DNA of 64,000 nt from assembly GCA_913045315.1 (NCBI GenBank), contig CAJWQJ010000003.1:31732-95731 (forward strand). Direction: 5' to 3'. The translations under genes were made by a program, and so were the position numbers. Positions 3,103 to 58,065 of this stretch are shown here, one piece after another. The stretch comes from an uncultured Chloroflexota bacterium (GTDB taxonomy: Bacteria; Chloroflexota; Dehalococcoidia; Lucifugimonadales; UBA1127). The notes below the pieces were generated by a model. The model was not told the DNA's origin. It made no database searches and was given only the letters and a program-made list of their open reading frames with translations. Within the stretch, counting starts at the first letter, position 1; each line of letters starts with the position of its first letter.

Positions 3103-5671
3103 TTTTATCCTGCAATCTGGTTATTCTTTCGCGTAATTCATTTAATAGATTTATTGCATCGATTGGCTTCGTTTCAGCTATGTCTATAGATTTTAGTTTT
3201 TGAATTATTCCCATCAACTCTTTCGGAATTGAATAACCTTCTGTCGATTGAGATTCTTTTTCAGGTAGGTTATTTTCTGATTCGAATAGTTTTAATAGTT
3301 CAAATGCCCTTTGTGTAACTGTTTTTGGTAATCCAGCCAATTCGCCAACTTGAATACCATAGCTTTTATCAGCTTTCCCAGGATATATTTTATGAAGGAA
3401 TATAACTTTTCCATTTATTTCTTCAACAGCAACATTTTGCAATACCAATTTAGAGAGTGACTCTTCAAGCTTGGTAAGTTCATGGTAGTGAGTTGCAAAT
3501 AAAGTTTTAGATCCTAAGTTTCTTGATTCGTGAATATGTTCAGCTACGGCTTGAGCAATTGCTAATCCATCGAAAGTACTTGTACCTCGTCCAATTTCGT
3601 CAAGAATTATTAATGATTTTGTAGTAGCCTGACTTAATATCATCGCAGTTTCAACCATTTCCACCATGAAAGTGGATTGTCCAGTTCCTAAATCGTCCTG
3701 GAGGCCTACGCGTGTAAAAATCCTATCTGCAATATCTATACATGCATACTTAGCCGGGACGAAAGAACCTATTTGAGTCATTAATTGTATTAACGCTACC
3801 TGTCTAATATAGGTGGATTTTCCTGACATATTAGGTCCAGTGAGTATGACTAAAGATGATTGATCATGATCAAGTTGCGTGTCGTTTGGAATGAATGTCC
3901 CATTAGGTATTAATTCCTCTACAATTGGATGTCTGCCCTCAATAATAGTAGTGCTAGAGGAGTTGCTGAGAATTGGTTTTACATAATTATTTTTTGTAGC
4001 TATTTCTGCTAATCCTCTGAAGCAATCTATTTCGGCAATGATTTTTGCAATAATCAGCATGAACATTGAGTTCGATGATGCTTTATTGCAAAGATCATCG
4101 AATAATTCACCCTCAATTTCATTGATTAATTTTTCAGATTCAAGTACGGATCTTTCATGTTTTTTAAGTTCTTCAGTGATGAATCTTTCTGCATTGGTTA
4201 ATGTTTGTCTTCTAATATATTTTTCAGGGATTTTTTCTAAGTTAGATTTTGATACTTCAATGTAGTATCCATAAATTCTATTAAATCCTACTTTTAGTGA
4301 TTTAATTCCTGTTGAAATCTGTTCTTGTTGTTCTAATTTCAGTATGTAATTTCTTCCTTCTGTAAGTATATCCTTTTCTATGTCAAGAATTTTCGAATAT
4401 CCCTGATTAAAGATTGGTTTTAGTCCTGTAGAGTCCTCATTTAAAGCAGAATCAATTAGTTTAATAGTTGCCTTACAGCTTTCAACTGAATCGATAAATT
4501 CTTGCGTAACAATATTATTTGAATTTTTCAAGAGTTTTATTAACAGTGGCAAAACTTTTATGCTTTCAGATATAGATATAAGATCTCGTGGAGAGGCAGT
4601 TCCCACGAGCAATCTATTTATTAATCTTTCTATGTCGGATATTTTTGATAAATGAGAGGAACTTTCGTTGAGAGCCATTCGATGATTTGTAAACCATTCT
4701 ACAGAGTTTAATCGATTTTCTATTTCCAATCTGTTAAGTAAAGGTTGGCCAATCCATTTGTTGAACAACCTACCTCCCATAGGAGTCTTAGTTGCATCAA
4801 TGGTGTTTATGAGAGCTTTTCCTCCACCAAAACGACCACCCTGAAACAATTCTAAGTTTCTTTTTGTTTGGACATCTAGAATCATATACTCCTCAGTTGA
4901 GTAATATTTAATAGTTTTGATTTGTGGGATTAGGTTCATTTGGGTTTCTCTTAAGTAATCTATTGCATTAATACTAGCTTGTAGGGCTAAAGGGGACTTT
5001 TCTAACCCAAAATCCTCCAGGTCTTTAATATTGAAATGTTTTAGCAATTTCGTTTTTGCTTTTTGATAGGAGGAATGATGTTTAAGTATAGATATGGGTA
5101 TTTGTAATTCTATTTCTCTTAGGAGCGATGACATTTGAGAATCATTTGATAGGAGAATGATTTCTTTTGGTTCTATTCTATCTAATTCTGTGATTAATTT
5201 TTCTATAGATATTTGAGTTGTAAAAAAATTCCCTGTTGAAATATCAGTGTATGCTATTCCTACATCATAATTTTGGCTTACAATAGCCAAGAGATGGTTA
5301 CTATTATTGGGATTAAGTAGATTAGGTTCGATAATAGTGCCTGGAGTTATTTTACGGACTACTTCTCTTTTAAATAAGCTTCTTGTTTCATCAGCTACAC
5401 CTGTTTGTTCGCATATAGCTACTTTGTGTCCTTGTCGAATTAATCTAGGGAGATATGAATCAAGGGCATGATGAGGTATTCCTGCCATTTTTACTCTTTG
5501 CCCCTTGCCCATTTCGCGTGACGTCAAGACAATATCAAGTGATTGAGAAAGTTTCTCAGCGTCTTCATCAAAAGCTTCATAAAAATCTCCCAAACGGAAC
5601 AACAAAATACTGTCATAATGTTGACTTTTTACTTCTAAGTATTGTTTCCGTAATGGTGTGACTTGTTCCAT
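3095..5671 (-). CDS. mutS: DNA mismatch repair protein MutS
   Basis: FRLGDFYEAF mismatch-binding motif; TGPNMSGKSTY Walker A; STFMVEM; DEIGRGTST; FATHYHEL. Confidence 0.98.
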   Translation of the reverse strand: MEQVTPLRKQYLEVKSQHYDSILLFRLGDFYEAFDEDAEKLSQSLDIVLTSREMGKGQRVKMAGIPHHALDSYLPRLIRQGHKVAICEQTGVADETRSLFKREVVRKITPGTIIEPNLLNPNNSNHLLAIVSQNYDVGIAYTDISTGNFFTTQISIEKLITELDRIEPKEIILLSNDSQMSSLLREIELQIPISILKHHSSYQKAKTKLLKHFNIKDLEDFGLEKSPLALQASINAIDYLRETQMNLIPQIKTIKYYSTEEYMILDVQTKRNLELFQGGRFGGGKALINTIDATKTPMGGRLFNKWIGQPLLNRLEIENRLNSVEWFTNHRMALNESSSHLSKISDIERLINRLLVGTASPRDLISISESIKVLPLLIKLLKNSNNIVTQEFIDSVESCKATIKLIDSALNEDSTGLKPIFNQGYSKILDIEKDILTEGRNYILKLEQQEQISTGIKSLKVGFNRIYGYYIEVSKSNLEKIPEKYIRRQTLTNAERFITEELKKHERSVLESEKLINEIEGELFDDLCNKASSNSMFMLIIAKIIAEIDCFRGLAEIATKNNYVKPILSNSSSTTIIEGRHPIVEELIPNGTFIPNDTQLDHDQSSLVILTGPNMSGKSTYIRQVALIQLMTQIGSFVPAKYACIDIADRIFTRVGLQDDLGTGQSTFMVEMVETAMILSQATTKSLIILDEIGRGTSTFDGLAIAQAVAEHIHESRNLGSKTLFATHYHELTKLEESLSKLVLQNVAVEEINGKVIFLHKIYPGKADKSYGIQVGELAGLPKTVTQRAFELLKLFESENNLPEKESQSTEGYSIPKELMGIIQKLKSIDIAETKPIDAINLLNELRERITRLQDKTN

Positions 5672-10992: not shown

Positions 10993-12261
10993 ATGAGTTA
11001 TAAAATGAATTCCTTCGCTCCTAATGATCCAATATCTTCTTTTGAAGCAGTAAGTTGGTTTTTTGAAGAAGCTGCTAATTATTTACAACTAAGTGATGGT
11101 ATTAAAGATTTATTGCGAAATCCGTGGAGGGTGATTCATACGCAAGTTCCTGTAAGAATGAATGATGGGAAGATTAATGTTTTTCAAGGTTATCGTGTTC
11201 AACACAACGGTGCTAGAGGTCCCTATAAGGGAGGAATTCGTTTCCATCCCGATGCTACAAGAGATGATGTAACAGCTTTATCCTGTCTTATGACATGGAA
11301 AAATGCCTTAGCTGATGTTCCATTTGGTGGTGCTAAAGGGGGTGTTCAATGTGATCCTAGCAAAATGGATTTAGTTGAATTGAATTCTCTAACGCGCCGT
11401 TTTACCCAAAATATAGAACATATATTGGGACCGAATAGAGATATACCTGCTCCAGATATGGGTACTAATTCTCAAGTTATGGCCTGGATGATGGATGCAT
11501 ATGGGCAAATTAATGGACATACTCCATCAATCGTCACAGGAAAACCTATCGAATTAGGTGGTTCATATGGTCGTGAAGCTGCACCTGGTAAAGGAGCCGT
11601 TATAGCACTTTCCGTTTGGGCCAAATTGGTTAATTACGAATTAAAAGATCGAAAAGTAGCTATTCAGGGTTTTGGTCAAGTTGGTAAAGCAGCTGCTGAG
11701 AACTTAATTAAATTGGGATGCATAATTGTGGCTATCAGCGATGTTAATGGAGGTATTTATAATAGTACTGGCTTGAATATTGATAGATTAAATGAATATT
11801 TCCAAGAAAATCAAACTGTTGTAGGTTTTGAGAGCAGTGATGCTGTGAGTAATAGGGAACTTATCGAATTGCCTTGTGATATATTGGTTCCTGCTGCAAT
11901 TAGTGAAGTAATTAATAGTCGCAACGCTAATTCGATAAAAGCAAATGTAATTCTTGAAGGTGCAAATTATCCCGTAACACCTGCTGCTGATAAAATTTTA
12001 AATGAATCTGGAGTTGCTATATTGCCTGATATCTTAGTGAATGCAGGCGGAGTCATAGTTTCATATTTTGAATGGGTTCAAAATACACAACAATTTCGTT
12101 GGACTGAAGAACACGTTAATCGTGAATTAGAAAGATATATAAACGATTCAGTTAAGACAGCATACGCTTTATCTGGATCTGTTCAAACACTTAGGCATGC
12201 ATCATATATAGTTGCTGTTGAAAGAGTTGCAAGAGCTGTGGAATTAAGAGGCTTTGTTTAA
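10993..12261 (+). CDS. gdhA: Glu/Leu/Phe/Val dehydrogenase, likely glutamate dehydrogenase
   Basis: GYRVQHN, GPYKGGIRFHP, MTWKNA, GGAKGG, DIPAPD, QGFGQVG, NAGGVIVSYFEWVQN. Confidence 0.9.
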   Translation: MSYKMNSFAPNDPISSFEAVSWFFEEAANYLQLSDGIKDLLRNPWRVIHTQVPVRMNDGKINVFQGYRVQHNGARGPYKGGIRFHPDATRDDVTALSCLMTWKNALADVPFGGAKGGVQCDPSKMDLVELNSLTRRFTQNIEHILGPNRDIPAPDMGTNSQVMAWMMDAYGQINGHTPSIVTGKPIELGGSYGREAAPGKGAVIALSVWAKLVNYELKDRKVAIQGFGQVGKAAAENLIKLGCIIVAISDVNGGIYNSTGLNIDRLNEYFQENQTVVGFESSDAVSNRELIELPCDILVPAAISEVINSRNANSIKANVILEGANYPVTPAADKILNESGVAILPDILVNAGGVIVSYFEWVQNTQQFRWTEEHVNRELERYINDSVKTAYALSGSVQTLRHASYIVAVERVARAVELRGFV

Positions 12262-12264
12262 TTA

Positions 12265-13254
12265 TTAAGGTTGAACAAGCATCCTAAGTGTTCCCTCATT
12301 TTCCTTGCGTTGATTGAGAATTTTATGTCCAGAATTCTCAGCCCATACAATGACATCATAAATGTTAAGAATTCCTGGGATTACAACTTCAATTAAGCTG
12401 CTGTTATCCTGTTTTATTTGTTCAGATAGAGCTGCAATAATTCCAGCACAGTTTTTACCTGTCCCATCTATAACTATCCATCCTGAGGTATTTGATGAAA
12501 CAAGGTTATTTACTTCTAGTGGATTTTGTAAAACATCTATCTCACCGAATTTTCTTAATTCTACCTGATGTTTAAATTCTGCAACTGATTCCCAATATAC
12601 TCCATTATCTCGATCACCTCTTGAACAGACAGCACCTCTCACACCAACTATATCAGGATTAACTCGTGCTAATTCATCTAAATCTGACATCTTTAGATGT
12701 CCTGATAAAGCTGTGCTCATTCCATCGGATTTTCCTTCCATTACCATGTCTTTAAGTTCGGATTCTGGAATGAAGTCAAATAAATTTCTACCATCCTTGG
12801 TTAAAGTGTCTATTAACCAACCATCACAATTACCATCACGTGCTAGTTTTGGCATTAAATGAGGATCTAATCCCCCTTTGTATAAAACGTTATCAGCAAA
12901 AAGCGAACCTATTAACTTTGTTTCTGTTCCTTCCAATGCTTCTTTTGATGCTTGTAGTATTTCAACAGATTTTTCATATTCTGCTTGCATAAATCCTACT
13001 TTTACAGAAGTTGCATTCATTTTTCCAGCAGCCCAAACTGCCATAGCTACAGTCCCTTCCTGATTTGGAACTACGCCTAGAGTTAGAGATGCATGTATTT
13101 CAGAAGGAACTGCATCTCTAACGCTTTTAAAAATAGTAGGTTTTGCAGATCCAACTAAAGCTTCTTGTAAATTTTTTACATCTATTATATCTGCATGGCC
13201 TTGCATTGCTTGCTTAGCTTCATGAAGATTTTGGACACTTACCATTAACATCAT
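12265..13254 (-). CDS. MfnB/DUF556-like (5-formylfuran-3-yl)methyl phosphate synthase with a C-terminal TusA/SirA-like domain
   Basis: LMVSV..EA, ADIIDVKN (Schiff-base Lys), SVKVG, LIDTLTKDG..LFDF, LSGHL, PDIVGVRGAVC; extra 71-aa tail IDGTGKNCAGII...DVIVWAENSGH. Confidence 0.8.
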   Translation of the reverse strand: MMLMVSVQNLHEAKQAMQGHADIIDVKNLQEALVGSAKPTIFKSVRDAVPSEIHASLTLGVVPNQEGTVAMAVWAAGKMNATSVKVGFMQAEYEKSVEILQASKEALEGTETKLIGSLFADNVLYKGGLDPHLMPKLARDGNCDGWLIDTLTKDGRNLFDFIPESELKDMVMEGKSDGMSTALSGHLKMSDLDELARVNPDIVGVRGAVCSRGDRDNGVYWESVAEFKHQVELRKFGEIDVLQNPLEVNNLVSSNTSGWIVIDGTGKNCAGIIAALSEQIKQDNSSLIEVVIPGILNIYDVIVWAENSGHKILNQRKENEGTLRMLVQP

Positions 13255-13256
13255 AA

Positions 13257-14246
13257 TTATGCACCTGCTATTTGTTTGATAGGATGGCCTATTGCCAACA
13301 AGTCGTTTTCTAATTCTAATTTTTCTGTATGATCAAAAGGCGTCAGTGGTGGTCGAGGATCTCCTGCAGCCATACCCATTAATTCTGACCAGTATTTACA
13401 TAAAGTTACTGGAAGCACACCACCAAATTTCTGTACAGTTCTAGGCCACCATTTATCTGAAACTTCTTTAACGGCTTTTACGTGTGTATCATAGAACTTT
13501 TTATCTATTAATCCTTCTGATGCTTTGTTAATAAATTGTACATAATAATTGTTTTCCTTGGTATCAAAACGCCAATCAGAGGTATTTGCGAACATAACTT
13601 GTTGGTGGAAACCCAGCTCCTCTTGTTTGAAATAAATCCACTCATCAGGAGTGCTTATTACTTTTTCTTTTCCTATAAGCATGTGAGTGTCGAGAGATAT
13701 TTGTTGATTAAAACTTGCTTCTTTTACTCCAACTACATTAGAAGGTTTACATACTTCTTTGAGTCCTTCAGGACTCATAACAATTCCAAATTGTGGAGAA
13801 TTATAAAACATAATTGCCAGATTAGTATTATTTGCTAGAAGTTCCGTATACTCTACTACTTGTTTCTCAGTCTTTGTAGCGAAATAAGGTGCAGCAAGTA
13901 TTAGTAAATCAATACCAATCTCCTCAGCATATTTGGCTAAGTTTAGCATATCTTTATAAGAAGTATGTGTAACATGAGCTGCGGTAAGCCAGTTGCCACG
14001 AGCTTCATCACTTAGAATTTCCATCACATTAAAACGTTCTTCAAGCTCAAGGCTCCAGAATTCGCCCATACCCCATGTGCATCCTCCACCTTTTGTTCCC
14101 AATGAGCGAATGTGTTTAATATTTTGACGAAGGCCTTGTTCATCTAGTTCATTGTCTTTTCCAAAGGGAGTCATTAATGTGGTCCATTGACCTTTAAGAT
14201 TTTTCCATGCCCATTCCTGTGCATCTTGTTTGTCGTAATTGGCCAT
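13257..14246 (-). CDS. Dihydrodipicolinate synthase/N-acetylneuraminate lyase-family class I aldolase (probably not DapA)
   Basis: MTPF, GEFWSLELEER, APYF, FYNSP, VVGVKEAS, PRPPL; canonical GTTGE replaced by WGMGE. Confidence 0.85.
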   Translation of the reverse strand: MANYDKQDAQEWAWKNLKGQWTTLMTPFGKDNELDEQGLRQNIKHIRSLGTKGGGCTWGMGEFWSLELEERFNVMEILSDEARGNWLTAAHVTHTSYKDMLNLAKYAEEIGIDLLILAAPYFATKTEKQVVEYTELLANNTNLAIMFYNSPQFGIVMSPEGLKEVCKPSNVVGVKEASFNQQISLDTHMLIGKEKVISTPDEWIYFKQEELGFHQQVMFANTSDWRFDTKENNYYVQFINKASEGLIDKKFYDTHVKAVKEVSDKWWPRTVQKFGGVLPVTLCKYWSELMGMAAGDPRPPLTPFDHTEKLELENDLLAIGHPIKQIAGA

Positions 14247-14281
14247 TTTCCCCCCTTGAATTTATTTAAGTTTCTAGATTG

Positions 14282-14311
14282 AGTGTAGTCAGGTTTAAAC
14301 CGGAGTGTCAA
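14282..14311 (-). promoter_or_regulatory. Putative promoter of the aldolase-mfnB-like unit
   Basis: Minus strand TTGACA, 18 nt, TACACT; palindrome GGTTTAAACC (14292-14301) in the spacer. Confidence 0.6.
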
Positions 14312-14326
14312 GCTAAAATGTAATGA

Positions 14327-17300
14327 TTAATTCATTAAATAATTTATTTGTGGTCTTATTGTGTATCCCTGATCATCAATTTTTGCGCGCATAATGGATA
14401 CTGCAGTTCTGGCAGTATCCATTGATGTAAAGCAAGGAATCCTTTGTTCAACAGCTGCTCTTCGAATATAAAACCCGTCACGCATAGGTTGTTCCCCACC
14501 AGATAATGTGTTTATTACGCAATCTACATTCGCATTGAGAATTAAGTCCAGAACATTTGGATTCCCTTGGTCTAGTTTCGATACTTCCTTTATATCATCA
14601 TAGCCCAAGCTTCTTATGAAATTTGCTGTTCCCTCAGTAGCATAAATTATGTAATTCGAAGCAATTAAATCGTTGATTAAATTTTCAGAATCTTTTTTAT
14701 CTCTATCAGCTATACTTAGAAGTATTGATCCGTTTTGTTTAAGCATTAATCCAGAAGCTATAAGTGCTTTTGCAAGTGCATTTTCGTAAGTTTTGTCAAT
14801 TCCCATCACCTCACCAGTAGATTTCATCTCTGGTCCAAGATGGGTATCAACTCCAGAAAGTTTGGCCATAGAAAAAACTGGTGCTTTTATTGCTACAAGG
14901 GGTTTACTTGAAAGTAAACCTGAAGTATATCCCATTGAGCGTAATTTTTTGCCAATCATTATTCCACTTGCTAATTTTACCATTGGGGTATCAGTTACTT
15001 TTGATATAAATGGTATAGTTCTGCTAGCTCTTGGATTGACTTCAATTATATAAACTTTTGGGGTATTTTCATTCCTCATAATTATGTATTGAATGTTCAT
15101 TAATCCTTTAATTTCCAGTCCTAATCCTATCTTTATTGTATAAGAGGTTATTTCATCTATTATTTGTTGGGAAATTGTTTGAGTGGGATACACTGCCATT
15201 GAGTCACCACTATGAACTCCAGTTCTTTCTATATGTTCCATAATTCCAGGAATTACTACTGTTTCCCCATCACAAACTGCATCAACTTCACATTCGATAC
15301 CTTCAAAATATTTATCAATTAGAATAGGTCTATCAGGACTTGCTATCAGTCCCTGCTCTATGTATTTTTCTAACTCAAATATGTTATAAACTATTTCCAT
15401 AGCTCTACCACCCAGAACGTAGCTAGGTCTTACTAAAACGGGATACCCAATATTTTCCGCTACAGTTATTGCTTCTTTTAGATTGGTAACAGTAGCACCT
15501 GGAGGTTGAGGTAACCCATTTCTTGATGCAAATTCCTCAAATTTTTTTCTATCAGATGCAATATCAATAACTTGAGCAGTAGATCCTAAAATTGGAAGTT
15601 CAACATTATTGAGTTTTTGTGAGAGGTTTATTGAAGTTTGTCCACCAAACTGAACTACTGATTCAGGTAAAAAATTTGAGGTAGAGTTAGTTTCATTATC
15701 TATAATATCCCTTAAGCTTTCTTCGTCTAATGGTTCAAAATATAATCGATCACTAGAATCAAAGTCTGTAGAAACGGTTTCAGGATTCGAATTAACAATA
15801 ATGCTTTGACGGCCTTGCTCTCGAAGAGAGGAAGCAGCGTGTACAGAGCAGTAGTCAAATTCTATTCCTTGTCCTATACGAATAGGGCCACTTCCTATTA
15901 CTATTGCTTTTGGTTCAGGTAATGGGAGGGCCTCGTTTTCTTCTTCATAGGTGCTGTAATAATAGGAAGTTATTGACTCAAATTCACCCGCACATGTATC
16001 TACCATTTTATATACAGGAGTAATTCCCATAGATTTACGTAGATTCCGTACATGCTCAGCAAGACCTTCTGCAATTCCTAAATTTGCAAGCTGAACGTCT
16101 GAATAGCCCATTCTCTTTGCATATAGTAAGAATTTGGAGTCAATAGACGTTTCAGGGTTTTCCATAACATATTTTTCGATATCAGTAATGTTTTTTATAG
16201 ATTGAATAAACCAAAAGTCAATAAATGTCTTTTTACTGATTTCCTCCACACTTGCACCTCGTCTTAATGCAGCTGCTAATGCCCATATTCTTTGATCTGT
16301 GGGAGGAAATAATGGAAGTTCCTGCCATGAATCAATAGATTTCCAATCAGGGTCTTCCCATAATAGACTTGTTTCAGTTTGTTCTAGCGATCTAATAGCT
16401 TTTTGTAACGCGGATTCGAAACTTCGATCAATAGCCATTACTTCACCTGTGGCTTTCATTTGAGTGTTAATTTGTCTATTCCCAGAAGGGAATTTATCAA
16501 AAGGCCATCTTGGAATTTTGACTACGCAATAATCTAATGCAGGTTCAAATGCAGCTACAGTTTGTCCTGTAACGGAATTTTGAATTTCATTTAATTTTTT
16601 GCCAATTGCAATTTTTGCTGCAACTCTAGCAATTGGATATCCTGTGGCTTTTGACGCAAGAGCAGAAGAACGACTCACTCTAGGATTCACTTCGATAACA
16701 TAATAGTCAATTTCTTTAGTAGGCCTTGAGTTTTTAGCAAGTTCAGCTGCAATTTCTTGGTGTGGAGCTAAAGCTAACTGAACATTACAACCACCTTCTA
16801 TCCCTAATGCACGAATTATTTTTATGCTTGCTGTTCGCAAAGTTTGATATTCTTTATCTGATAAGGTTTGGGATGGAGCTACTACGATACTGTCACCAGT
16901 ATGGACACCCATTGGATCAAGATTTTCCATGTTACAAATAGTTATACAAGTGTCATTCCCATCGCGCATAACCTCATATTCAACTTCTTTCCAGCCAATT
17001 AGTGATTTTTCCAATAATACTTGATTGATAGGACTAGCATTAAGGCCAGATTGAATCACGCTTTCTAATTCATTTTCATTATTTATTATTCCTCCACCTG
17101 TTCCCCCTAGTGTGTAGGCAGGTCTTGCAATTAAAGGATAGCCTATGGAATCTGCAACTTCGATTGCATTTTTTACTGAATCCACAGTTACATTTGGAGG
17201 TTCAGGCTCATTAATTTCATGTAATAATTGCCGAAAAAGTTCCCTATCTTCGGCTTTTTGTATTGCCTCAATCTGTGTTCCGAGTAGTTGAACATTGTAT

Positions 17301-17623
17301 TTTTCGAGGATACCTGATTCAGAAAGTTCAACAGCTAAATTTAAGCCTGTTTGTCCACCTAGAGTTGCTAATAAACCATCTGGACGTTCGATGTCGATTA
17401 TTTTTTCCAAAAATGCTTTTGTTAATGGCTCTATATAAACAACATCGGCTGTTTCTTGATCTGTCATTATAGTAGCAGGATTTGAATTAACTAAAATTGT
17501 TTTAATTCCCTCTTCCCTTAGGGATTTACATGCCTGAGTTCCTGCATAATCAAATTCGGCAGCTTGACCTATAACAATTGGACCTGAACCGATTACTAGA
17601 ACTTTTGAAGGGAGTGTAGACAT
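14327..17623 (-). CDS. carB: Carbamoyl-phosphate synthase large subunit
   Basis: GSGPIVIGQAAEFDYAG, NSNPATIMTD, duplicated ATP-grasp (GSGPIRIGQGIEFDY), MGS domain. Confidence 0.99.
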   Translation of the reverse strand: MSTLPSKVLVIGSGPIVIGQAAEFDYAGTQACKSLREEGIKTILVNSNPATIMTDQETADVVYIEPLTKAFLEKIIDIERPDGLLATLGGQTGLNLAVELSESGILEKYNVQLLGTQIEAIQKAEDRELFRQLLHEINEPEPPNVTVDSVKNAIEVADSIGYPLIARPAYTLGGTGGGIINNENELESVIQSGLNASPINQVLLEKSLIGWKEVEYEVMRDGNDTCITICNMENLDPMGVHTGDSIVVAPSQTLSDKEYQTLRTASIKIIRALGIEGGCNVQLALAPHQEIAAELAKNSRPTKEIDYYVIEVNPRVSRSSALASKATGYPIARVAAKIAIGKKLNEIQNSVTGQTVAAFEPALDYCVVKIPRWPFDKFPSGNRQINTQMKATGEVMAIDRSFESALQKAIRSLEQTETSLLWEDPDWKSIDSWQELPLFPPTDQRIWALAAALRRGASVEEISKKTFIDFWFIQSIKNITDIEKYVMENPETSIDSKFLLYAKRMGYSDVQLANLGIAEGLAEHVRNLRKSMGITPVYKMVDTCAGEFESITSYYYSTYEEENEALPLPEPKAIVIGSGPIRIGQGIEFDYCSVHAASSLREQGRQSIIVNSNPETVSTDFDSSDRLYFEPLDEESLRDIIDNETNSTSNFLPESVVQFGGQTSINLSQKLNNVELPILGSTAQVIDIASDRKKFEEFASRNGLPQPPGATVTNLKEAITVAENIGYPVLVRPSYVLGGRAMEIVYNIFELEKYIEQGLIASPDRPILIDKYFEGIECEVDAVCDGETVVIPGIMEHIERTGVHSGDSMAVYPTQTISQQIIDEITSYTIKIGLGLEIKGLMNIQYIIMRNENTPKVYIIEVNPRASRTIPFISKVTDTPMVKLASGIMIGKKLRSMGYTSGLLSSKPLVAIKAPVFSMAKLSGVDTHLGPEMKSTGEVMGIDKTYENALAKALIASGLMLKQNGSILLSIADRDKKDSENLINDLIASNYIIYATEGTANFIRSLGYDDIKEVSKLDQGNPNVLDLILNANVDCVINTLSGGEQPMRDGFYIRRAAVEQRIPCFTSMDTARTAVSIMRAKIDDQGYTIRPQINYLMN

Positions 17624-48711: not shown

Positions 48712-51135
48712 TTGGGGGTATTTTGCCTGATGGCAGTAATGAAGTTCAGTAATAAGGTATTCCAAAAAAAATTAACTTTACTTGTTGCCTCTATTCTGTT
48801 GTTTATAATTTTACTAATTATTATCATTTCAAATTGTTCTTCTTCTGAAAATGAGATTAATTTCAATTCAAACCTAGATTCACAAATTGAATTGAATAAT
48901 ATTTTTCAATCAAATGAAGAAGATTTTAATAATCAAATTGCTACTCAATCTGATGTTGTGTTAATGGACAATCAATTTCCATTGAAGGCATATACACCTC
49001 AAGGCTGGAATTCCCCGTTAATTATTAATGGTGAAAACGGTGATCGAAATTTAAATTTTTTGTTAGAAAGTGAGGAGATTTTTATTAGTTGGTCAATTAT
49101 TAATGAATCTACAAGTAATGTTAACAAGGTTTTTTTTGTAGATTTATTACTTGATGGGATTCCTATAGAACGGTGGAAATTTTCAGGGATTTCACCTGGT
49201 GAATCTTATTCTATAACTGATTGGTCTGAACTTGCTGAGAAAGCAAATTTATCTAATGGAATTCACCAATTATCAATTGTGATTGATTCCACGAATTTAA
49301 TCGATGCTACGAATTCTCTTAATAAAAAGTTTTCAATTCAATTTACATTGAATCAATATCAAGATATAAATGTTTCGAAAAACACCAACCCTTTGAATGC
49401 AAGATTTCCAAATTTAGAATTTTTTGTGCCTGATGGTTGGAGAAATCCTATAAGGGTTAATTTAGAGAAAGATTTACCTCCTGGTGTTTTATCAACTCCC
49501 ATCGACACAACGGGTATATCAGTTCAGTTCGCCTATTTTAATGGTGGTTTAACAACAGTTGATGAATATTACCAAGTGCATGTTTATGTAAATGATGTTT
49601 TTGCTTCAAAATTTAGCAGGTGGGGTTCTTTACCTGGAGAATATGTAATTAGTACACCCATTTACAACCTGATTTCTGATCTAGATCTTGAATATGGGAA
49701 ACATGAACTAAAGGTGGTTCTAGATCCTACTTTAATGGTAATGGAATCAAATGAGAGTGATAATCAAATTACTGTTGAATTTATTTGGTCTCAAGATGGT
49801 ATTGAGATTCAACAGCAAAATGTTTCTAATGATAATGAGGCCCCCAAAGGATTAACTAATGTGCATGGATACAAATTTAATAATTGGTCTGCTTCCTTAA
49901 GTCTTTCTAACGAACCAGGTGTGTATGATAATGATCAACTTATTCATAGCAAAAATCCCTTATTTGTTAGCTGGGCACTAGAGAATAATGGATATTCTGA
50001 AACTGAATTTGAAGTTGAATTATTTGTAGATGGAAAGATTTTAAAAAAATGGGATCGTCCTAGTCTTCCTGTGGGATCTATCGATATGATTTTGGACTAT
50101 TCGATGGATTTTATTATTGATAGTGGATTCCATAATGTGCTGCTTAGAGTTATTACTGCATCTGGAGAAATTATCAATATATACGAAGATCGTTTTTATT
50201 GGGAAAAGGATTACCAGCCAAATTTTTCAAGGATCGAGAGTGTAAATTTCCTAACCAATTTTGGGGATTACTGGACAAGACATCAAGGATTAAATTTCCC
50301 AGATGATCAAATAACTACAGAAGAATTAATAACTTGGATGAGTGTTCTATATGAAGAGGTTCATGGAGAAACTATAGGAGAGAATCTTTTATTTCATATC
50401 TTAAATCCTAAGGAATATTATAGATGGATTGAATCAGAATGTAGAGATAAATCGATGAATTTATCTCCTGACATTCGTGTTTTTTATTTTGATAATTGTC
50501 AAAAAGGTGAACATTCAGATGGATACTATACTAATTGGCATGGATATAATCGTATTGTAGTCAAGTGGGATTTACGTCCATTAGAATTCTTGGCTGTTAT
50601 TAGTCATGAGCTCGGACATTACTATCAGAGTACCAAAAGAAATGAGTTGGATAAAACTTATGATCCTGAAATTATTGCCCTGAAGGAAACCCAAGCATAT
50701 GTTCATCAAAGTCTTTTGATAAAAGCTTTAGAAGATAAACTTGGTTTTGAATTAATGACATACCCTGCTACAAGAGCATACGAGCAATATGTAAGAAATG
50801 AAATAATGTCGATGAAGGAAAAAGTAGAAACATCACATGCTCATGGAAAATTATTGGCATGGGATTTGTTGCTCAATGATCCTAGTTTACGCTTGCAAAG
50901 AACAAATCTTTTTAATAATCTAAAATTAGATTTGAATAATCAAAAGTTTATGTTTGATTACCTTATTGAATTGGACATTGAAGAATCTGAAGTGAGATCA
51001 CGATTATTTATCTCTGATCTTAATACATTGTCGAATACTCTTGAGTCATTTGCAATATCTAGATTGAAGAATGGTTTATTAAATTTTGAACAAGGAGATC
51101 CGTTTTTACGAGAAACAGGTCTTTTAATTCCCTGA
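48712..51135 (+). CDS. Membrane-anchored protein with three CARDB/Ig-like repeats and a C-terminal HExxH zincin-like domain
   Basis: N-terminal hydrophobic helix; repeated W..(P/S)L / SW...N / F.V.L..DG / G.H.L....D units (one ending ESNESDN); VISHELGHYYQ...LKETQAY. Confidence 0.65.
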   Translation: MGVFCLMAVMKFSNKVFQKKLTLLVASILLFIILLIIIISNCSSSENEINFNSNLDSQIELNNIFQSNEEDFNNQIATQSDVVLMDNQFPLKAYTPQGWNSPLIINGENGDRNLNFLLESEEIFISWSIINESTSNVNKVFFVDLLLDGIPIERWKFSGISPGESYSITDWSELAEKANLSNGIHQLSIVIDSTNLIDATNSLNKKFSIQFTLNQYQDINVSKNTNPLNARFPNLEFFVPDGWRNPIRVNLEKDLPPGVLSTPIDTTGISVQFAYFNGGLTTVDEYYQVHVYVNDVFASKFSRWGSLPGEYVISTPIYNLISDLDLEYGKHELKVVLDPTLMVMESNESDNQITVEFIWSQDGIEIQQQNVSNDNEAPKGLTNVHGYKFNNWSASLSLSNEPGVYDNDQLIHSKNPLFVSWALENNGYSETEFEVELFVDGKILKKWDRPSLPVGSIDMILDYSMDFIIDSGFHNVLLRVITASGEIINIYEDRFYWEKDYQPNFSRIESVNFLTNFGDYWTRHQGLNFPDDQITTEELITWMSVLYEEVHGETIGENLLFHILNPKEYYRWIESECRDKSMNLSPDIRVFYFDNCQKGEHSDGYYTNWHGYNRIVVKWDLRPLEFLAVISHELGHYYQSTKRNELDKTYDPEIIALKETQAYVHQSLLIKALEDKLGFELMTYPATRAYEQYVRNEIMSMKEKVETSHAHGKLLAWDLLLNDPSLRLQRTNLFNNLKLDLNNQKFMFDYLIELDIEESEVRSRLFISDLNTLSNTLESFAISRLKNGLLNFEQGDPFLRETGLLIP

Positions 51136-57297: not shown

Positions 57298-58065
57298 CTA
57301 AATAATATCTTCATATTCATTGTCGTCATCGTCATAGTCATCGTTAGATTCTTCTGATGATGTGGACGAGGGTAATAAAGGACTATTTGAATTTTGCTTA
57401 TGAGGTTTTCGTTTTTTTGAAATTTTCAAGTTATTACTGATTTCAGTGAATTCTTCTTGGGTAATATTTGAAATATCTGCAACAATTCCCTGTACTCCAA
57501 TTTCATTAAGGCAATCAAGTTCCCATTTTGAAGGTTTTCTTTCGAGTTTGACGAGAAAGGGAAGGTTAATATCGCTTCTCAAAGCAGAAATATTAAGTAA
57601 TTTTTCTAAAGTTATTGGAGTTGTAAGGCTTTCTGAAAGGAGAATAGCATCAACGGGTAAAGTTTCTAGACCTGAAACTTGGTCCTTTAGAAATTTTTCG
57701 GAAATAACTAAAATTTTTCCTAGATCTTCTTTGTTGAGTTGTTCTAATTCAATAGTATGGTCATTTATCAAAATAAAATCGATATTGTTTTTGATAGAAT
57801 TGATATCGATATTTTCTGTTTGCAAACCAATAACAATTGAATCAGATGCTATTTCAAAGGGAGTATTTTTTTTATTTGAATTCTGTATCAATACTACAGC
57901 ATCCACAGGATAATTGCTTAAGTCGATTTTTTTTATTGATTCTGTTTTTGTTGTTGCTATCAAAACCATTGATGGAGGATTTGAGCTTGATTGTCTAAGA
58001 CCAAAACCAATCCTTGGACCTTCATTTTTCCCAAGTTGTTCTATTCGCCGTATCAATTTACTCAT
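57298..58065 (-). CDS. Hypothetical protein (beta/alpha-repeat pattern) with an acidic tail
   Basis: 255-aa ORF with GAAGGA RBS; N-terminal RIGFG, tail EESNDDYDDDDNEYED; no catalytic motif recognised. Confidence 0.6.
   Translation of the reverse strand: MSKLIRRIEQLGKNEGPRIGFGLRQSSSNPPSMVLIATTKTESIKKIDLSNYPVDAVVLIQNSNKKNTPFEIASDSIVIGLQTENIDINSIKNNIDFILINDHTIELEQLNKEDLGKILVISEKFLKDQVSGLETLPVDAILLSESLTTPITLEKLLNISALRSDINLPFLVKLERKPSKWELDCLNEIGVQGIVADISNITQEEFTEISNNLKISKKRKPHKQNSNSPLLPSSTSSEESNDDYDDDDNEYEDII

Follow-up and report, generated by a model that had tools for sequence, protein, structure and literature searches.

A conserved aldolase–MfnB–TusA-like module of SAR202-type Dehalococcoidia and its possible link to quinone head-group synthesis

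Introduction

Two routes to the menaquinone ring have been described, the classical one (MenF/D/H/C/E/B) and the futalosine one (early enzymes MqnA/E/C/D), both of which are chorismate-based. Furan rings are formed by MfnB, which in methanofuran biosynthesis converts two glyceraldehyde-3-phosphate (GA3P) to 4-HFC-P. This 4-HFC-P synthase is represented by MJ1099 of Methanocaldococcus jannaschii (PDB 4RC1 and 4U9P), in which Lys155 has been described as catalytic (PMC11365854). In this work a stretch of 64,000 nucleotides of an uncultured Chloroflexota bacterium of the oceanic SAR202 group (Dehalococcoidia, Lucifugimonadales; assembly GCA_913045315.1, contig CAJWQJ010000003.1, positions 31,732 to 95,731), hereafter the window, was analysed. 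It contains two adjacent genes, together named the module, which encode an atypical Schiff-base aldolase and an MfnB-type protein carrying a TusA-like tail. The distribution and gene clusters of the module suggest a connection with quinones, and our leading explanation, held at about even odds, is that in the SAR202 group it supplies a precursor for the head group of a menaquinone-type quinone.

Two further families are related to the module. DapA and N-acetylneuraminate lyase (PF00701) are class I aldolase barrels with a Schiff-base lysine and the tyrosine of a YN(x)P motif, features that are common to the module aldolase. In DapA, the arginine of the SRT motif binds aspartate semialdehyde. 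The proteins of the TusA/SirA/YeeD family (PF01206), of which TusA has the motif CPxP, share with the tail of the module their fold and a cysteine located where helix 1 begins.

The module as a conserved two-gene unit

The upstream gene matched the Pfam family PF00701 (DHDPS) with 100.1 bits and stayed below the cut-off of all NCBIfam equivalog models, for example that of dapA (TIGR00674, 78.9 vs 206 bits). In an alignment of 13 family sequences as well as in an alignment with two true DapA proteins, the Schiff-base lysine K175 (13722-13724) and Y148 were invariant. In contrast to DapA, to which it is 21-22% identical, the module aldolase has (T/A)WGMGEF (TWGMGEF in the gene of the window) in place of the GTTGE motif, a Q or a gap at the place of the SRT arginine, and two conserved insertions, QQVMFANTSDWRFD and SDKWW. 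Its identity as the DapA of the lysine pathway was rejected because the GTTGE motif and the arginine are absent and a true DapA is encoded elsewhere in the genome (contig C9, 295 bits). A search of the ESM Atlas with the aldolase returned DHDPS clusters only, of which the two nearest belonged to Chloroflexota and the third was commonest in Pseudomonadota.

The downstream gene matched PF04476 (4HFCP_synth) over residues 3-227 with 180.2 bits (gathering score 22.4) and fell under the cut-offs of all NCBIfam equivalogs, including the MfnB model NF002573 (185.4 vs 341 bits). This domain aligned end to end with MJ1099 (phmmer E 7.9e-43), and its structural model superposed on that enzyme (4rc1) with a Foldseek E of 1.8e-21, a template modelling (TM) score of 0.89 and 36% identity in the structural alignment. 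Residues D25, K27, K85, D149, K153 and R215 were invariant in 37 family sequences; D25, K27 and K85 are conserved in MJ1099, while D149 and K153 align with D151 and Lys155, respectively. Presumably D25, K27, K85 and D149 correspond to catalytic residues of that enzyme. Unlike MJ1099, the domain is joined to a TusA fold and has a DHDPS-like aldolase as its partner, either as a separate protein or within one fusion, and its subfamily stands sharply apart: clustering at 50% gave about three clusters of full-length MfnB-TusA proteins, after which identity falls from at least 60% to about 40% or less in stand-alone MfnB.

A linker of variable length and sequence, with a predicted local distance difference test score (pLDDT) below 50 at residues 244-255, leads to the tail domain. 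In the Pfam search the tail reached 15.1 bits against PF01206 (cut-off 28.6) over residues 261-328, and family members remained below the threshold (15.1-19.5 bits), although 13 of 13 matched the family at E<=1 (best 8.9e-7). The model of the tail (pLDDT 92) has a beta-alpha-beta-alpha-beta-beta fold and resembles E. coli TusA (3lvj, 3lvk, 1dcj) with TM scores of 0.79-0.81 and root-mean-square deviations of 1.8-2.8 A, with a Foldseek E of only ~1e-2. All 37 aligned sequences have Cys269, which lies at the start of helix 1 within the motif DGxGKxC(A/S)G. The TusA-like domain is thus real despite its sub-threshold Pfam score; it differs from TusA, SirA and YeeD in that score, in its C(A/S)G motif and in its covalent tether to an aldolase. 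A profile search of the tail against PDB sequences gave no match, the search for stand-alone short relatives yielded only five fragments, and no sulfur-transfer partner of the domain was identified.

The pair was conserved as a unit. Among the best 80 of the 502 aldolase-encoding stretches found in a scan of species genomes, the MfnB-TusA part directly followed the aldolase in 79, the 80th being interrupted there by a string of N; both parts were fused in one open reading frame (ORF) in 55 and split in 24. Likewise, the MfnB-TusA gene came after a DHDPS-like gene in all 12 loci of relatives that were compared. UbiD-like ORFs adjoined the module in two relatives. The protein collection contained more than 1000 relatives of the MfnB-TusA protein. 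The top 120 were at least 67% identical, and those of the 120 that bear a name are labelled SAR202, Dehalococcoidia or Chloroflexi. The module is most commonly flanked by FakA-DegV-RecG and, at its other end, by PheA-TrkA-TrkH; in relatives L017-L026 these form a conserved block around it. In the streamlined genome of the window the module lies instead between gdhA and carB, indicating that the unit was relocated as a whole. In another genome (G040, L016:6528-7907), a gene for an IS66-family transposase directly adjoins the module. We take the pair to specify a single enzyme system. The original prediction, made from the sequence of the window, had placed two genes 2 nt apart between carB and gdhA and had described them as a second Schiff-base aldolase of an atypical DHDPS type and an MfnB with an additional Cys-containing, TusA-like domain; coordinates, family matches and the fold comparison agree with it on every one of these points.

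Distribution against the known menaquinone routes

Three sets of genomes were compared, namely 41 relatives, 176 genomes of the order and 401 of the class, and the module was present in 29, 111 and 24 of them, respectively. In the order sample MenB was called at E<=1e-85 and a strong MqnA/D-type gene was defined as a PF02621 copy scoring at least 200 bits; on this basis 24 genomes had MenB (22 over the model cut-off) and 25 a strong MqnA/D-type gene. None of the 111 genomes with the module had either of them, whereas one or the other was found in 48 of the 65 genomes without it, leaving 17 with neither. By family label, the module occurred in 40 families and MenB or Mqn genes in 16, and within this sample none was common to both groups. 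The relatives gave a similar picture, with the module in 29 genomes, MenB over the cut-off in five, MqnA/D together with a true MqnC in two and no overlap. The genome of the window had no match to PF02621 or MqnC, and its best score with the MenB model was 135 vs 342.7. At a finer level, families f1 and f62 of the relatives and class samples contain genera with the module side by side with genera having MenB or Mqn genes.

The module and the early futalosine and classical enzymes are mutually exclusive across genomes, and the module apparently stands at the same point of the pathway. It is non-homologous to them, lacks radical S-adenosylmethionine or coenzyme A chemistry, and would draw on triose phosphates and a 2-oxo acid, not on chorismate. 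Two other genomes may be recorded here. One (G466) combines a true MenB with two PF02621 genes, being the sole genome of the order sample with two known routes. Another (G247, family f25) encodes, about 10 kb from its module, a divergent PF02621 paralogue (L030:4558-5481) that is 38% identical to the type found in mqn operons.

Late quinone genes and their clusters

COX1 was found in 39 of the 41 relatives, evidencing that these organisms respire and hence need a quinone. Genomes with the module appear to retain the late menaquinone genes, the candidates being an MqnL-type UbiD, UbiX, an MqnP-like UbiA and MenG. UbiD was present in 27 of the 29 module genomes among the relatives and in 22 of the 24 of the class; the four that lack it are G008 (94% complete), G015 (91%, in 260 contigs), G231 (57%) and G246 (55%). 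In the genome of the window ubiX and ubiD are adjacent on contig C1, and UbiA adjoins MenG on contig C13. The MenG of this genome passed its model (TIGR01934, 214.7 vs 158 bits). Its UbiD had the menaquinone decarboxylase TIGR03701 as the best NCBIfam model (470.6 bits, cut-off 495.9), with which the UbiD clustered with the module in G390 scored 606, over the cut-off, and that of a futalosine operon (G106) 488.7, under it. Its UbiA matched MqnP_DT best among the models of named enzymes (262 bits), the generic ubiA_other being higher (281.5), and the MqnP models remained under their cut-offs in all three of these genomes. On contig C13 a thiamine pyrophosphate (TPP)-dependent enzyme (3256-4902, minus strand; best model NF004807/PRK06154, 550 bits, cut-off 607) adjoins UbiA and MenG; the TPP-dependent enzymes found near ubiD/ubiA at the other loci compared are distant paralogues only.

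The module and the late genes occur together in four lineages: G028, G390 and G039 show the order ubiD-ubiA-ubiX-[fusion], and G009 shows [pair]-ubiD-ubiA-ubiX. In sister genomes with the futalosine pathway (G106, G149 and G410), the series continues after ubiA-ubiX-ubiD with mqnE, a PF02621 gene and mqnC, while two members of the same family that have the module (G130 and G167) keep ubiA-ubiX-ubiD without the mqn genes. Maximum-likelihood trees of 15 UbiD and 13 UbiA sequences gave no split by type of early pathway. The UbiDs of module and futalosine genomes of family f62 form one clade (support 89/83), and in the UbiA tree G130 (module) is the sister of G106 (futalosine), with support 94/94. 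Taken together, the complementary distribution and the shared gene clusters suggest that the module takes part in the synthesis of an isoprenoid-quinone (menaquinone-type) head group.

Organization of the locus and expression signals

The features of the locus are listed in Table 1. The two module genes are co-oriented and separated by 2 nt, and the downstream one converges with gdhA, their stop codons being separated by 3 nt (12262-12264) into which no terminator-like hairpin fits. The remainder of the window carries housekeeping genes, among them those for MutL/S, FtsA/Z, CarAB, PyrBC, enolase, GAPDH, PdxA and AroA. It also encodes a protein of 807 aa (48712-51135, plus strand), for which CARDB was a weak match only, and contains an ORF of 255 aa (57298-58065, minus strand) that matched nothing in Pfam at E<=1e-8.

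Table 1. Features of the module locus (positions are those of the window).
Feature	Position	Strand	Basis and remarks
Atypical DHDPS/NAL (N-acetylneuraminate lyase)-family class I aldolase gene, 329 aa	13257..14246	-	PF00701 and family alignments
MfnB-TusA gene, 329 aa	12265..13254	-
TIM-barrel domain of the MfnB (4-HFC-P synthase) type, residues 1-235 of the downstream gene	12550..13254	-	PF04476 and Foldseek
Variable disordered linker, residues 236-258	12481..12549	-	pLDDT and alignment
TusA-fold domain, residues 259-329	12268..12480	-	Cys269 at 12448-12450
Sigma-70-like pattern TTGACA-N18-TACACT	14282..14311	-	10/12 matches; palindrome GGTTTAAACC inside the spacer; pattern match only
Shine-Dalgarno-like purine-rich run AAGGGGGG	14250..14257	-	3 nt ahead of the aldolase ATG; read from the sequence
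gdhA	10993..12261	+	flanking gene
carB	14327..17623	-	flanking gene

The original prediction had also described the pair as co-transcribed and assigned to it a promoter of its own with a palindrome in the spacer. Both the pattern and the palindrome are present in the sequence. Nevertheless, sites of the promoter type were fewer in the region than expected from shuffled sequences (2 vs 9.3), which makes this one a mere pattern match; the hexamers TTGACA and TACACT recur upstream of the module in one of the three relatives examined (L056). The palindrome was rejected as an operator since it was kept in none of these three, L056 included. In two metatranscriptome runs, short contigs about 99% alike lay inside the DHDPS-like gene and a piece 91% alike in the mfnB part, and no contig bridging both genes was found in these runs.

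Proposed function and alternative explanations

According to the proposed mechanism, the MfnB-type domain, whose catalytic residues appear to be conserved, would condense triose phosphates to a furan aldehyde phosphate, either 4-HFC-P or a close variant. The pyruvate-type Schiff-base aldolase, which is not DapA, would add a 2-oxo acid to this aldehyde, and the TusA-fold domain, on its flexible tether and with its single invariant cysteine, may act as a shuttle of intermediates or as a sulfur donor. In this way the module would replace the early futalosine (MqnA/E/C/D) or classical (MenF-B) enzymes in SAR202-type Dehalococcoidia, and its product would be passed on to the MqnP-like UbiA, the MqnL-type UbiD with UbiX, and MenG. 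As a more specific and more tentative proposal, in which our confidence falls somewhat short of even, the head group of the respiratory quinone of SAR202 may be built from triose phosphates and a 2-oxo acid by a pair of Schiff-base aldolases together with the cysteine domain on its tether, independently of the Men and futalosine routes, which start from chorismate. Such a pathway would be a third way to the ring of menaquinone, or else would lead to a new furan- or sulfur-containing prenylquinone.

The conversion of 4-HFC-P and 2 pyruvate to 1,4-dihydroxy-6-naphthoate, CO2, Pi and 2 H2O balances in atoms and is redox-free, and it is not relied on here. A role in an alternative 3-dehydroquinate (DHQ) route, prompted by the pheA neighbour of the relatives, was rejected, as the genome has DAHP_synth_1 and a classical DHQ synthase and no DHQS-II. 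A link to PLP synthesis, with PdxA encoded in the window, was among the readings considered.

Several observations weigh against a function in quinone synthesis. On the chemical side, the carbon skeletons obtained by simple aldol reactions could not be folded into a naphthalene, and for this reason the route from 4-HFC-P and pyruvate was dropped. On the side of gene order, ubiD/A/X seldom cluster with the module (in 3 of 80 loci, and in 3 of 14 neighbourhoods), and in the window its neighbours are gdhA and carB; moreover, the UbiD and UbiA of the same genome are under the curated equivalog cut-offs. As to distribution, none of the three routes was found in 17 of the 176 genomes of the order and in five of the 41 relatives, and four of these five (G003, G005, G007 and G024), which are 92-97% complete, have COX1 but no module, MenB or MqnA/C/D. 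In respiring genomes of this kind a further source of quinone appears to exist. In family f34 of the class sample, all 25 genomes have UbiD and lack both the module and PF02621, and six module genomes (five in family f25, plus G468) contain a weaker, lone PF02621 paralogue. In addition, the genomes are related by descent, so that the counts overstate the number of events, and a search of the literature found no quinone analysis of SAR202. It may be added that G024 keeps a ubiD-ubiA-ubiX-ubiE cluster (L040), and that the genomes of family f34 (e.g., L041, G115) have a single high-scoring UbiD (~300 bits), which in G115 is located beside ABC transporter genes.

The main rival of the quinone function is that the module produces an undescribed furan-derived, possibly sulfur-containing cofactor or metabolite without any link to quinones, and that its complementarity with Men and Mqn genes reflects lineage history, an explanation we consider rather unlikely. 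It is favoured by the scarcity of nearby quinone genes and the respiring relatives devoid of all three routes mentioned above, by the housekeeping nature of the usual neighbours (FakA-DegV-RecG and PheA-TrkA-TrkH) and by an identity of 61-79% across the class, which suggests a housekeeping role of any kind. It is opposed by the fact that none of the 111 module genomes has MenB or a strong Mqn gene, when 48 of the 65 others have one of them, by the switches of route inside families f1 and f62, and by the location of the module within a ubiD-ubiA-ubiX cluster in four lineages.

It is very improbable that the module serves the UbiD/UbiX decarboxylase itself, for example through the supply of a cofactor or through maturation, and does not form its substrate. 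The co-occurrence with UbiD and the common clusters would be expected in that case as well; nevertheless, orthologous UbiD and UbiX occur without the module in 16 of 16 class genomes with two copies of PF02621 and in G033 and G037, and it is specifically the early mqn genes that take the place of the module in those genomes. Equally improbable is a catabolic function, in which the pair would break down a furan aldehyde or a keto-deoxy sugar acid. SAR202 is known for expansions of catabolic enzymes, and the DHDPS family includes many catabolic aldolases; against this, the module is single-copy, highly conserved and often fused, no transporter, dehydrogenase or regulator is conserved beside it, and the residues of MfnB for the biosynthetic condensation appear intact. 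Ordinary biosynthesis of methanofuran or methylofuran is hardly credible, since apart from the PF04476 domain with its conserved catalytic residues the genome offers no Fae, MCH, FTR or TIGR03123, and the MfnB part, at 185 vs 341 bits with the NCBIfam equivalog, belongs to a subfamily distinct from stand-alone MfnB.

The models Fae, MCH, FTR and TIGR03123, the last of which we take to be that of MfnF, gave no match in the genome of the window, which is 89.4% complete, MfnA, C, D and E not having been included in the search. This agrees with the earlier statement that no other mfn or tetrahydromethanopterin (H4MPT) gene lies in the window. Together with the conservation of the pair, which had been set as a test (79 of 80 loci, 55 of them fused), and that of the aldolase lysine K175 and the tail cysteine C269 along with the MfnB domain, it supports the view of the original prediction that this is a dedicated module for an unusual heterocycle or cofactor and not for ordinary methanofuran. 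Judged from gene content, the module is unrelated to methanofuran.

The search of the literature found no paper joining menaquinone and MfnB, and nothing on an aldolase–MfnB–TusA module. The searched parts of two SAR202 papers (PMC10444878, PMC11994032) do not discuss quinone synthesis, while a 2026 survey names Chloroflexota as prominent among the lineages without known quinone pathways (PMC13386864). Whether its product is a quinone precursor or another cofactor, the system matches no described pathway. Cultured strains of SAR202 exist (PMC10444878).

Significance

In the dark ocean, bacteria of the SAR202 group rank with the most abundant, and cytochrome oxidase is encoded by nearly all of those that were sampled. 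Most of the sampled SAR202 genomes are devoid of both known routes to the menaquinone ring, a gap that the module, present in about 500 species genomes, would fill. If the proposed function is true, it would represent a third, non-homologous solution for the menaquinone head group, or a new quinone, and the furan chemistry of the MfnB type would gain a role beyond the cofactors of methanogens. Predictions of respiration made from the genomes of these lineages would then be corrected.

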